Assembly: GCF_044647545.1 (NCBI RefSeq)
Contig: NZ_CP172818.1
DNA length: 64,000 bases
Strand: one strand, 5' to 3'
Source: Escherichia coli
Lineage (GTDB): Bacteria > Pseudomonadota > Gammaproteobacteria > Enterobacterales > Enterobacteriaceae
Both the position numbers and the translations under genes were made by a program. Position 1 is the first letter of the stretch; each line of letters opens with the position of its first letter. Positions 9,872 through 32,473 of the stretch are shown piece by piece. The notes beneath the pieces were generated by a model. It was not told where the DNA came from and searched no databases. It saw only the letters and a program-made list of their open reading frames with translations.

Positions 9872-9938
9872 GTGGTCTAGAGTCAAGATTAGCCCCCGTG
9901 ATGTTGTCAGGTGCATACCTGCAACGTGCGGGGGTTTT
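9872..9938 (+). ncRNA. rdlD: Antisense antitoxin RNA RdlD (approximate boundaries)
   Basis: Plus-strand GC hairpin (cccccg...cggggg, 9893-9934) followed by TTTT lies in the ldrD 5' leader, where the Rdl antisense RNA is expected; the 5' end is a guess. Confidence 0.4.
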
Positions 9939-10301
9939 CTCTCTCCAGCAACCAATGCCACCAGGGATAAAGCCCCCGCAACATTGCGCCTCACCGGAAC
10001 CTTTCCGGCTTGCCACTGATTCTACGATTGCTTTTTACCGTCAGCACCCGGCAATCTTCCTCATTGCGTGATGCATTCCAGCTTAATTTCTTTATTTGCA
10101 ATAGTTGCAGTTCATATCCGGGCTGACTCCAGACTGGTAGTGAAATGCGCATTTTTGTAGAATTGCGCCTCCTCGCGACCTCCCCAGTGAATCTGTTGCC
10201 TCATTTTTTACATACTGCGTATTCGACTTCTCCACCTGTTGCGCAAGAGAAACTGGGTTTATTCATTTTTGCGAGGCCGACTTCTTTCTGGACAGGACTT
10301 T

Positions 10302-17287: not shown

Positions 17288-17857
17288 TATTCTGCTCCAA
17301 TTGTGATGTTTGTTGTTTTAACCCTTTGCAGTGGGTTGTCGCCGCCTGACCTTTTTTGTTTTTTGCCCGGTCGGGTCAACGTTATGAGGTGGGGATGCCG
17401 TACTAATTAACATCAGTGTAACAGTGCGGATCCTCCAGAAAATGCCCCTCGTGACCTACAATCTGTCAACAGAATGTGAAAACGTCAATACAGCCAACCG
17501 GGATTTACACCAACGGTGAGAATCAACAAACAAAGATTAAAAAAACTTCAAACAGCTATTTGCAGCAGAGAAATTTGTGCTACGCCAACACAACCAGAAC
17601 AATCAGCTTAATATTTAGCAACATTTGGTGATTAAGTTTTATGCATTTAATGAAAAAAATCTGAGGTAAAGGTGGATATCTGAGCGATTAATACCATGAA
17701 CGCTAAAACGCACAGGGGAAAATGCCAGCGCCAGCCATAAGTAACGCAAAAAAAGATTTAAGCAAATATAAAAAAAGACAATGGTTTCTGTCACAAATCC
17801 GTTAATGGATAGTGAGATATGGGGCGCAAATTTGGCAGGGAAATGTGTGGTGTGTAG

Positions 17858-17960
17858 ATCGGATAAGGCGGTCGCGCCGCATCCGACAATGGGCCGGTAC
17901 ATTTGCCTGATGCGACGCTGACGCGCCTTATCAGGCCTGCATCGAGTCGAACCTCCTTGT
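17858..17960. repeat. BIME/REP element (two inverted REP units)
   Basis: ggataaggcggtcgcgccgcatccgaca followed by gcctgatgcgacgctgacgcgccttatcaggcctgc; matches the REP consensus pattern (GCCGGATGCGGCG...CTTATCAGGCCTAC). Confidence 0.6.
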
Positions 17961-18801: not shown

Positions 18802-18878
<77 letters not shown>

Positions 18879-29663: not shown

Positions 29664-29954
29664 ATGGAATATAAAGATCCAATGCATGAGCTGTTGAGCA
29701 GCCTGGAACAGATTGTTTTTAAAGATGAAACGCAGAAAATTACCCTGACGCACAGAACAACGTCCTGTACCGAAATTGAGCAGTTACGAAAAGGGACAGG
29801 GTTAAAAATCGATGATTTCGCCCGGGTTTTGGGCGTATCAGTCGCCATGGTAAAGGAATGGGAATCCAGACGCGTGAAGCCTTCAAGTGCCGAACTAAAA
29901 TTGATGCGTTTGATTCAAGCCAACCCGGCATTAAGTAAGCAGTTGATGGAATAG
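29664..29954 (+). CDS. yiaG: HTH-type (XRE-like) transcriptional regulator YiaG
   Basis: 96-aa ORF with a helix-turn-helix segment (LRKGTGLKIDDFARVLGVSVAMVKEWE). Confidence 0.75.
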   Translation: MEYKDPMHELLSSLEQIVFKDETQKITLTHRTTSCTEIEQLRKGTGLKIDDFARVLGVSVAMVKEWESRRVKPSSAELKLMRLIQANPALSKQLME

Positions 29955-30038
29955 ACTTTTATCCACTTTATTGCTGTTTACGGTCCTGATGACAGGACCG
30001 TTTTCCAACCGATTAATCATAAATATGAAAAATAATTG

Positions 30039-30234
30039 TTGCATCACCCGCCAATGCGTGGCTTAATGCACATCAACGGTTTGACGTACAGACCATTAAA
30101 GCAGTGTAGTAAGGCAAGTCCCTTCAAGAGTTATCGTTGATACCCCTCGTAGTGCACATTCCTTTAACGCTTCAAAATCTGTAAAGCACGCCATATCGCC
30201 GAAAGGCACACTTAATTATTAAAGGTAATACACT
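30039..30234 (+). promoter_or_regulatory. cspA: cspA promoter (-35 TTGCAT, -10 CTTAAT, AT-rich UP element) and about 160-nt cold-responsive 5' UTR
   Basis: TTGCAT at 30039-30044 and CTTAAT at 30062-30067 with a 17 bp spacer; a long leader precedes the ATG at 30235, consistent with the thermosensing cspA 5' UTR. Confidence 0.7.
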
Positions 30235-30447
30235 ATGTCTGGTAAAATGACTGGTATCGTAAAATGGTTCAACGCTGACAAAGGCTTCGGCTTCATCACT
30301 CCTGACGATGGCTCTAAAGACGTGTTCGTACACTTCTCTGCTATCCAGAACGATGGTTACAAATCTCTGGACGAAGGTCAGAAAGTGTCCTTCACCATCG
30401 AAAGCGGCGCTAAAGGCCCGGCAGCTGGTAACGTAACCAGCCTGTAA
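30235..30447 (+). CDS. cspA: Major cold shock protein CspA
   Basis: 70-aa [73 protein letters not shown]; RNP1 motif KGFGFI and RNP2 motif VFVHF. Confidence 0.95.
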
Positions 30448-30474
30448 TCTCTGCTTAAAAGCACAGAATCTAAG

Positions 30475-30502
30475 ATCCCTGCCAAATGGCGGGGATTTTT
30501 TT
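30475..30502 (+). terminator. Rho-independent terminator of cspA
   Basis: Hairpin atccctgcc-aaat-ggcggggat followed by TTTTTTT. Confidence 0.7.
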
Positions 30503-30635
30503 ATTTGTTTATTCAGGAAATAAATAATCGTTCGCGTAATAAAATCTATTATTATTTTTGTGAAGAATAAATTTGGGTGCAATGAGAATGCGCAACGCCG
30601 TAAGAAAGGCGGGAATAACTTCCCGCCGAAGACGC

Positions 30636-30788
30636 TTACTCTTTCAATTTGCAGGCTAAAAACGCCGCCAGCTCATAATTCTCCTGTTTAATATGCAATT
30701 CACACAGTGAATCTCTTATCATCCAGGTGAAAAATAAAAGCGTGAAACAAATCACTATTAAAGAAAGTAATCTATATTTCTGCGGCAT
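30636..30788 (-). CDS. hokA: Type I toxin HokA (Hok/Gef family small membrane peptide); locus disrupted by IS150
   Basis: 50-aa reading MPQKYRLLSLIVICFTLLFFTWMIRDSLCELHIKQENYELAAFLACKLKE; the IS150 left end begins 33 bp upstream of the start codon. Confidence 0.8.
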   Translation of the reverse strand: MPQKYRLLSLIVICFTLLFFTWMIRDSLCELHIKQENYELAAFLACKLKE

Positions 30789-30867
30789 TCCCAGCCTCCT
30801 GTGTTGATTTCCACCGAGTATGTACTGCACCCATTTTGTTGGACGATGAAATGGAATAGCCCCTGAT

Positions 30868-31389
30868 ATGTCAAAGCCAAAATACCCTTTTGAAAAGCGC
30901 CTTGAAGTCGTGAATCACTACTTCACTACTGATGATGGTTACAGGATCATCTCGGCACGTTTTGGTGTCCCCCGAACCCAGGTCAGGACATGGGTTGCCC
31001 TCTATGAAAAACATGGAGAAAAAGGTTTAATTCCCAAACCTAAAGGTGTTAGTGCTGATCCAGAGTTGCGTATTAAGGTCGTGAAAGCTGTGATCGAGCA
31101 GCACATGTCCCTTAATCAGGCTGCTGCTCACTTTATGCTTGCTGGTAGTGGTTCTGTAGCCAGGTGGCTGAAGGTTTATGAAGAGCGCGGAGAAGCTGGT
31201 TTACGCGCGCTCAAGATTGGCACCAAAAGAAACATTGCAATATCAGTTGATCCAGAAAAAGCGGCATCAGCATTGGAGCTGTCAAAAGACCGACGTATTG
31301 AGGATCTTGAAAGGCAAGTTCGATTTCTTGAAACGCGGCTTATGTATCTAAAAAAGCTGAAAGCCTTAGCTCATCCCACGAAAAAGTGA
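30868..31389 (+). CDS. insJ: IS150 transposase OrfA (InsJ), HTH DNA-binding protein
   Basis: 173-aa ORF MSKPKYPFEKRLEVVNHYFTTDDGYRII...; IS3-family OrfA. Confidence 0.9.
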   Translation: MSKPKYPFEKRLEVVNHYFTTDDGYRIISARFGVPRTQVRTWVALYEKHGEKGLIPKPKGVSADPELRIKVVKAVIEQHMSLNQAAAHFMLAGSGSVARWLKVYEERGEAGLRALKIGTKRNIAISVDPEKAASALELSKDRRIEDLERQVRFLETRLMYLKKLKALAHPTKK

Positions 31390-32237
31390 AAGTACTCAAC
31401 GAGCTAAGGCAGTTTTATCCTCTTGATGAGCTTCTCAGGGCTGCGGAGATACCGCGCAGTACGTTTTATTACCATCTAAAGGCTCTCAGCAAGCCTGACA
31501 AGTATGCGGACGTTAAAAAGCGTATTGGTGAGATTTATCACGAGAATAGAGGCCGATACGGATACCGTAGGGTAACGCTGTCTCTTCATCGAGAAGGGAA
31601 ACAGATTAACCATAAAGCTGTTCAGCGCCTGATGGGAACCCTCTCACTTAAAGCAGCGATTAAGGTCAAGCGATACCGCTCTTACAGAGGAGAGGTAGGG
31701 CAAACCGCCCCTAATGTTCTCCAAAGAGATTTCAAGGCTACGCGGCCAAACGAGAAGTGGGTTACCGATGTTACTGAATTTGCAGTCAATGGGCGCAAGC
31801 TGTATTTGTCTCCAGTAATAGATCTCTTCAACAACGAAGTTATTTCTTACAGCCTTTCGGAAAGACCAGTGATGAACATGGTTGAGAATATGCTCGATCA
31901 GGCATTCAAAAAGCTTAATCCTCACGAGCATCCTGTTCTGCACTCTGACCAGGGATGGCAGTATCGTATGAGAAAATATCAAAATATTCTTAAAGAACAT
32001 GGTATTAAACAAAGCATGTCCAGAAAAGGCAATTGTCTGGATAATGCTGTGGTGGAGTGTTTCTTTGGAACCTTAAAGTCGGAGTGTTTTTATCTTGATG
32101 AGTTCAGTAATATAAGCGAACTGAAGGATGCTGTTACGGAATATATTGAATACTACAACAGCAGAAGAATTAGCCTGAAATTAAAAAGTCTGACTCCAAT
32201 TGAATATCGGAATCAGACCTATATGCCTCGTGTTTAA
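31386..32237 (+). CDS. insK: IS150 transposase OrfB (InsK), DDE integrase catalytic domain; expressed as an OrfAB fusion by -1 frameshifting
   Basis: 283-aa ORF in the -1 frame relative to insJ; DDE-type motifs; slippery A_AAA_AAG at 31349-31355 within the overlap region. Confidence 0.85.
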
Positions 32238-32473
32238 CTGTCCAACTTTTTGGGGTCAGTACACACTTTGATTTATAGTCAGGTGGGGCTTTTCTCTGTC
32301 TGCCTTTCGGTGAATACCTGAGACAAACAGTCTCAAGCACCCGTGGCTATTCTAGCTTAATAAGTTCGTTTCTTCTCCTTGATATAATCCTAAAAAAATC
32401 TCATAAAATTAATATATGAGACAATCTTTATTCAGCAGAAGATTATTAAAGGTTGCTCTATTATTTAGCGATA

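Follow-up and report, generated by a model that had tools for sequence, protein, structure and literature searches.

The cspA cold-shock control region in an Escherichia coli chromosome: a textbook landmark with two competing, conserved pairings of its cold box

Within the 64,000-nt stretch of Escherichia coli chromosome analysed here (hereafter the window), the region from 30039 to 30234, which runs from the first base of a TTGCAT hexamer to the base before the cspA ATG, is almost certainly the native region controlling cspA, the major cold-shock gene, read on the + strand. It is a textbook element, already characterised in K-12, and as such a landmark and no discovery. From 29802 to 30239, promoter and leader are 100% identical, base for base, to E. 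coli K-12 MG1655 (b3556; window coordinates plus 3,689,814 at cspA), and the cspA mRNA is identical at 423 of 427 positions, the four differences being two synonymous changes and two terminator-loop bases. Gene order (yiaG-cspA-hokA-IS150-glyS) is also that of K-12, and the surrounding genome is ~1.7% diverged from it. An initial annotation of this DNA, made from the sequence, had named the locus as cspA on the + strand and offered it as a landmark; that reading is borne out by a promoter, a leader and an ORF (in translation) identical to K-12, by a full-length match to the Rfam family RF01766 (cspA thermoregulator) and by the shared gene order, and no result spoke against it. Our analysis establishes the identity, intactness and conservation of the region and shows that two conserved pairings compete within it. 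Published experiments on the identical K-12 sequence are the source for where transcription starts, for what the UP element and the extended -10 (TGn) do, and for the two conformers and how efficiently each is translated.

In the proposed mechanism, transcription would start from a sigma-70 promoter with weak core hexamers, which would draw its strength from an A+T-rich UP element contacting the alpha subunit of RNA polymerase and from the extended -10. The 159-160-nt leader, together with roughly the first 30 nt of the coding sequence, would then fold in one of two ways that exclude each other. The 37 °C form would have the cold box in a local hairpin and the Shine-Dalgarno sequence (SD) and AUG buried in a long irregular helix, and the mRNA would be poorly translated and decay very fast. 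In RNA made or folded below ~20 °C an earlier, co-transcriptional fold would persist with the SD in a loop, improving binding of the 30S subunit and stabilising the mRNA, whereupon the CspA protein would feed back on its own message. We infer that a kinetic, co-transcriptional trap keeps this early fold in place in the cold. Two temperature-dependent conformers are reported to have been shown experimentally for the K-12 sequence (Giuliodori et al. 2010, cited in PMC9947658), and accounts of the cold and 37 °C conformers, of SD exposure, of 30S binding and of folding intermediates of 87, 137 and 187 nt are given in PMC9947658 and PMC6386945. Fragments of 137 and 187 nt, designed to represent intermediates of co-transcriptional folding, are reported to fold like the full-length cold form (PMC9947658).

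Table 1. Features of the cspA locus, and further RNA features of the window (window coordinates).
Feature	Position	Strand	Remarks
yiaG intrinsic terminator, putative	29980-30005	+	hairpin ACGGUCCUG-AUGA-CAGGACCGU, then UUUU (UUUUCC)
A+T-rich UP-like element	30010-30038	+	83% A+T; core AAAATAA at 30029-30035, directly 5' of the -35
-35 hexamer TTGCAT	30039-30044	+	3/6 match to TTGACA
Extended -10 TGG (TGn) and -10 hexamer CTTAAT	30059-30067	+	TGG 30059-30061; CTTAAT 30062-30067, 4/6 match to TATAAT
cspA 5' untranslated leader	30076-30234	+	159 nt; identical to K-12; RF01766 positions 1-160
Cold-box hairpin	30078-30094	+	GGUUUG / ACGUA loop / CAGACC; Rfam consensus helix
Cold box	30082-30092	+	UGACGUACAGA
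Alternative long-range cold-box partner	30178-30192	+	AUCUGUA...GCACGCC; predicted to pair with 30078-30092
Upstream box and small hairpin	30198-30210	+	GCCGAAAGGCACA with GCC-GAAA-GGC hairpin; Rfam helix, 91.7% paired
Shine-Dalgarno AAGG	30222-30225	+	9 nt 5' of AUG
cspA coding sequence	30235-30447	+	70 codons and stop; translation identical to K-12 CspA
Downstream box	30247-30260	+	
cspA intrinsic terminator	30472-30505	+	12-pair stem (30472-30499), then T-run; last helix of RF01766
rdlD antitoxin RNA	9875-9940		Rfam, 88 bits
naRNA4 nucleoid-associated RNA	17857-17937		Rfam, 63 bits
tRNA	18805-18878	-	Rfam, 60.7 bits

The core hexamers of the promoter are weak. The initial annotation had described them as near-consensus, a description that does not hold: together they match the consensus at 7 of 12 positions (Table 1), and a generic sigma-70 scan, which demanded at least 9 of 12 consensus matches and an A at the second position of the -10, made no call at the cspA promoter. 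Because this promoter depends on its UP element and TGn, the scan was discarded as a test. The A+T-rich element that had also been noted upstream of the -35 is indeed there, its A+T content comparing with 49% over the whole window and being equalled by just 0.34% of 29-nt segments, and the TGG of the extended -10, absent from the initial annotation, forms the last three bases of the 17-nt spacer (CACCCGCCAATGCGTGG) between -35 and -10. Eight bases after the -10 hexamer lies A30076, the published cspA transcription start site. A search of the 64 kb for TTGCAT-N17-CTTAAT gives a single exact match, and allowing one mismatch yields two matches where 0.46 would be expected by chance; the hexamers by themselves are therefore weak evidence, and the real support comes from identity to K-12 and the Rfam match.

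Comparison with orthologues shows which parts of the promoter have been kept. When aligned on the conserved GGTTTG at the 5' end of the transcript, promoters across Enterobacteriaceae and Erwiniaceae share the layout (A)AAATAA – 2-4 nt – TTGC(A/T)T – TGn – (C/G)TTAAT – ~8 nt – (A/T)CGGTTTG. TTG[C/T] occupies the -35 position in 69/69 orthologues and a -10-like hexamer is present in 68/69, while an A-rich UP core (AAATA[AG] or an A6 block 5' of the -35) is found in 57/69 and TGnnTTAAT in 55/69. As judged from this alignment, the conserved features of the promoter are the TGn extended -10 and the AAAATAA UP-like block. The first two bases of the -10 are non-consensus yet conserved, in agreement with the reported requirement of the cspA promoter for its UP element (Mitta et al. 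1997, cited in PMC4956666) and with the extended -10 being reported as critical (Phadtare & Severinov 2005, cited in PMC2613000). Identity to K-12 and a sharp rise in conservation at 30076 suggest that the promoter may be strong and would start transcription ~159-160 nt 5' of the ATG. On its upstream side, the putative yiaG terminator lies 3' of the end of the yiaG ORF at 29954 and has a predicted energy of -15.5 kcal/mol (ViennaRNA). A generic terminator scan did not flag this hairpin, since just four T follow the stem. It probably marks the upstream boundary of the cspA control region and insulates the cspA promoter from upstream transcription.

Counted from A30076 the leader is 159 nt long, and counted from 30075, where the RF01766 model starts, it is 160 nt, in keeping with the leader of about 160 nt first annotated here; the Giuliodori group likewise counts 160 nt (PMC6386945). 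The match to RF01766 spans positions 1-428 of the 428 in the model (window 30075-30502) at 500 bits against a gathering cut-off of 78 bits, a score that is not in itself proof of leader homology, as the model includes coding sequence and a match can be carried by it; the leader alone scores 147 bits over model positions 1-160. All 124 of the 124 Rfam consensus pairs are canonical in the window sequence, which, with the unbroken identity to K-12, upholds the earlier view that promoter and leader are intact. The accompanying claim, that the leader has the architecture of the cspA thermosensor, stands in so far as the leader matches RF01766. It needs amending in that the literature places the thermosensor in the 5' portion of the mRNA, first codons included, and does not equate it with the leader; the structural switch extends some 30 nt into the cspA coding sequence, a stretch that takes in the downstream box. 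The name upstream box, for the segment at 30198-30210, is reportedly that of Yamanaka et al. (1999). The native cspA SD is named as AAGG in PMC9800685, and in the window this motif is fully paired in both the predicted and the Rfam 37 °C-type fold.

The encoded protein scores 172 bits against the NCBIfam CspA model NF007679, and its gene carries two synonymous differences from K-12, at 30240 and 30321. The first of these makes codon 2 TCT here and TCC in K-12, turning a C-G into a U-G pair in the hairpin just 3' of the AUG, and the U-G pair is also carried by 22 of 65 orthologues. In the terminator, the two loop bases that differ (30485-30486) give a loop of AAAT here vs ATTT in K-12, and a small indel-rich stretch relative to K-12 follows from ~30511, downstream of the terminator. 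CspA also passes the CspE equivalog model NF049933 (124 bits vs a cut-off of 120), and in PGAP naming equivalog models take precedence. The RefSeq/PGAP name of this gene (WP_000014594.1), which is uniform across 12 of the 12 E. coli records listed, is likely traceable to the CspE equivalog match despite the higher score on the CspA model.

Between cspA and hokA, a 23-codon ORF on the + strand (30582-30653; MRMRNAVRKAGITSRRRRLLFQFAG) corresponds to the K-12 small protein YsaE, and it runs antisense over the 3' end of hokA. IS150 (30817-32263) separates the hokA frame (30636-30788, - strand) from the sok RNA (32246-32342, - strand; RF01794, 69.5 bits) and its promoter region, and sits at the same site and in the same orientation as in K-12 despite the ~1.7% divergence of the backbone. 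In strain FDAARGOS_497, whose flanks are 99.97% identical to the window, the IS150 is inverted, offset by ~44 bp and 98.8% identical, which suggests an independent insertion or replacement at the hokA locus. Matches to sok antitoxin RNAs also occur a few kb from cspA in Klebsiella oxytoca (locus L021, 660-811; 121 bits) and Franconibacter (locus L054, 205-358; 89 bits), so that the proximity of hok/sok to cspA is not specific to E. coli.

In E. coli itself the control region is all but universal. The 225 nt of promoter and leader are present in 5422 of 5426 complete genomes, at an identity of at least 99% in 5402, and in nearly all of them as a single copy (median one place, maximum two); the leader alone reaches at least 99% in 5403 of the 5422. 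A 571-nt query that takes in the flanks and 3' end does so in 2991 records only, which places the control region among the least variable parts of the cspA locus. To look further afield, orthologues were picked by the N-terminal CspA pattern MSGKMTG[ILVMF]VKWF, with one genome per species and with upstream sequence playing no part in the choice. All 73 of 73 matches encode CspA orthologues, one of them cut off by the end of its locus, and 69 of the 73 had enough flank for the leader to be compared. The leader aligns with the cspA leaders of other Enterobacteriaceae, as the initial annotation required of a genuine cspA leader, with identities to the window of 55-100% over the 69 orthologues from Enterobacteriaceae and Erwiniaceae. 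Identity is 98-100% in other Escherichia (100% in 4 of 5), 91-94% in Citrobacter, Salmonella and Intestinirhabdus, 64-79% in Kluyvera, Klebsiella, Raoultella, Enterobacter, Leclercia and Lelliottia, and 55-60% in Franconibacter, Pantoea and Erwinia. At the same loci outside Escherichia the 66-nt promoter retains 36-68% identity and the 35 nt upstream of it 9-74%; promoter and upstream DNA have thus diverged more than the leader, which argues that the leader is under stronger constraint.

Thirteen representative orthologues gave full-length RF01766 matches of 184-491 bits. One Enterovibrio leader is in effect unalignable (40% identity), yet the csp gene it precedes (locus L033, 1460-1884), which has the MSGKMTG start, still scores 111.8 bits on RF01766, so that the family cut-off can be reached mainly via coding sequence. 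The cspA loci of Pantoea, Erwinia and Franconibacter are without an E. coli-type terminator directly 3' of the stop codon and have instead a conserved 3' motif, CTTACGATAGCGATGAAGGCA..CAGCCTGAGCAGT (alignment columns ~450-495).

Two pairings compete for the arms of the cold box. The first belongs to the fold on which Rfam and ViennaRNA agree: the minimum-energy structure of the full mRNA contains, like the Rfam consensus, the cold-box hairpin, a long helix with interruptions that joins the leader to the early coding sequence, and an inner helix that pairs SD and AUG (predicted unpaired probability ~0.00-0.02 from 10 to 42 °C). Over 65 distinct orthologues the 5' part of this 37 °C-type fold is paired in 83% of cells, vs 30-46% in slid controls in which partners were shifted by 1-3 columns, and the cold-box hairpin in 98.9%, its stem being invariant and its loop variable. 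In the second, the cold box is predicted to pair instead with the long-range partner at 30178-30192, leaving the SD in a weak A-U hairpin or loop. This alternative fold is paired in 78.5% of cells vs 33-47% in slid controls, and its two cold-box helices in 96.4% and 93.5%, in columns that are almost invariant. Both cold-box pairings are thus maintained in 65 distinct sequences from Enterobacteriaceae and Erwiniaceae. Covariation favours neither: changes on both sides of a pair were no better than in shuffles for either fold among the 65 distinct orthologues, and most pairs never vary, as is to be expected where both partner segments of the cold box are almost invariant.

Folding the leader at 37 °C and at 10 °C, the check put forward in the initial annotation, proved not decisive alone. 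At equilibrium the leader by itself kept one structure from 10 to 42 °C with no switch (SD accessibility 0.33-0.49), and in the full mRNA the closed fold was the minimum-energy structure throughout the same range. Forcing the alternative cold-box pairing upon the full mRNA costs 7.8-10 kcal/mol at every temperature, and in this energy model the switch is therefore not an equilibrium property. In growing transcripts the predicted structure switches between the two folds. With 120 nt or 140-159 nt transcribed, the alternative fold is predicted to be optimal at 10, 15 and 37 °C, with 165 nt only at 10-15 °C, and with 180-189 nt again only at 10-15 °C, where the prediction changes between 15 °C and 25-37 °C. 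That a temperature switch is confined to fragments of 180-189 nt fits the published view of the cold form as kinetically trapped during transcription and involving the start of the coding sequence. Shuffled sequences are as stable as the 189-nt 5' fragment (z = +0.14).

Several other readings of the region deserve weighing against that of a promoter followed by a thermoregulated leader. The hexamers might have arisen by chance, with the 160 nt a mere spacer between genes or a portion of a yiaG read-through transcript; their 7 of 12 agreement with consensus, the silence of the generic scan and a one-mismatch copy elsewhere in the window (0.46 expected) would all suit such an account. The region is nonetheless identical to an experimentally mapped K-12 promoter, 55-69 of 69 orthologues keep its -35, TGn and -10 at constant spacing from the conserved transcript start, with divergent bases around them, and yiaG is separated from the UP element by a strong hairpin with a T-run. 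Identity to K-12 and conservation in orthologues effectively refute the chance-match or spacer reading, to which we attach next to no credence. That a small protein or an independent small RNA is encoded in the leader is just as hard to believe. Two mechanically called ORFs do overlap the interval (30036-30140, + strand, 34 aa, TTG start; 30096-30209, - strand, 37 aa), but the one on the + strand has its start codon within the promoter, ahead of the first transcribed base, orthologous leaders differ by indels that are not multiples of three, and in Rfam the entire stretch falls into the cis-regulatory cspA family alone.

Two further proposals concern what the leader does, and are to be taken more seriously, though we consider both rather doubtful. 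The leader may act mainly on mRNA stability, exposing the message to rapid degradation by nucleases at 37 °C and stabilising it in the cold, with translational thermosensing at the SD and AUG secondary. The reported half-life of cspA mRNA, ~12 s at 37 °C vs >20 min after cold shock (PMC4956666, citing Mitta et al. 1997), speaks for this, as do a conservation that extends far beyond the SD region and equilibrium folds of the full mRNA in which SD accessibility does not change with temperature. Against it, the cold conformer is reported to bind 30S subunits ~2.5-fold better and to be better translated in purified, nuclease-free systems in vitro (PMC9947658); the stability and translational mechanisms are, moreover, compatible. 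It is likewise possible, and in our view about as doubtful, that the cold box serves above all as an autoregulatory site bound by CspA, which shuts off cspA after acclimation, and is not part of the thermosensor. Its stem is invariant in the 65 distinct orthologues, the cold box is common to cspB and cspG (cspI having the GGUUUG arm only), and in both conformers CspA binding site 1 is reported to map to mRNA nucleotides 12-36 (PMC9947658). Yet the cold box has a conserved alternative partner and changes partner along the predicted folding pathway, which ties it to the structural switch. The autoregulatory and switch roles may coexist. The autoregulation model itself reportedly goes back to Jiang, Fang and Inouye in 1996 and to Bae and colleagues in 1997.

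The leaders of the cold-inducible E. coli paralogues cspB, cspG and cspI are, like that of cspA, ~160 nt long, with a GCGTTAAT-type -10, a 5' GGTTTG cold-box arm and a GCCGAAAGGC-type box; those of cspB and cspG also carry the ACAGAC arm and TCTGT segment of cspA. The GCCGAAAGGC core of the upstream box is conserved in cspB and cspG and has two substitutions in cspI, and the cold-box motif is present in K-12 cspB and cspG, whereas cspI aligns at the GGUUUG arm only. Paralogue leaders nevertheless show a mean column identity of only ~68%, with many indels; they score 113-159 bits against RF01766, compared with 500 bits for the window element, and sit in other loci (the Qin prophage, and next to cspH). 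A blastn search in distant mode with the cspA leader found no cspB, cspG or cspI leaders, the database being too large and the similarity too low, and the K-12 loci were fetched directly for this comparison. On sequence grounds, the element in the window is the cspA orthologue proper and not a paralogue.

Further afield, the cspB/cspC thermoswitches of Staphylococcus aureus resemble cspA in lying in the 5' UTR of cold-shock mRNAs, where alternative conformations are described as favouring translation at low temperature (PMC8034633). As far as the description in that abstract goes, they differ in being unrelated in sequence and structure, outside RF01766 and in a Gram-positive host. Zipper thermometers such as ROSE and fourU share with cspA a cis-acting, temperature-responsive mRNA structure around the SD and AUG, but they melt open on warming, whereas cspA is reported to be more translatable in the cold (PMC9947658). 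The window element does not fit a zipper-type thermometer: the fold predicted for the full-length mRNA has SD and AUG paired at all temperatures between 10 and 42 °C, and the published polarity is the opposite. With the predicted closed fold at minimum energy over the whole of that range, cspA does not work by simple melting.

For the organism, the cspA region anchors the window as a segment of the E. coli chromosome and indicates that the cold-shock control region of this strain is intact. For the family, the comparative data confirm that the leader is better conserved than its own promoter and that the UP core, TTGC, TGn and nTTAAT, non-consensus though they are, have been kept across two families. 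There is, finally, an outside chance that the cold-box arms have, in the 30078-30094 hairpin and the 30178-30192 duplex, two equally conserved and exclusive partners of which the predicted duplex is distinct from the published model of the cold form. Were this improbable proposition true, the mechanism of the switch would be refined, and the switch itself would be older than the split between Enterobacteriaceae and Erwiniaceae.
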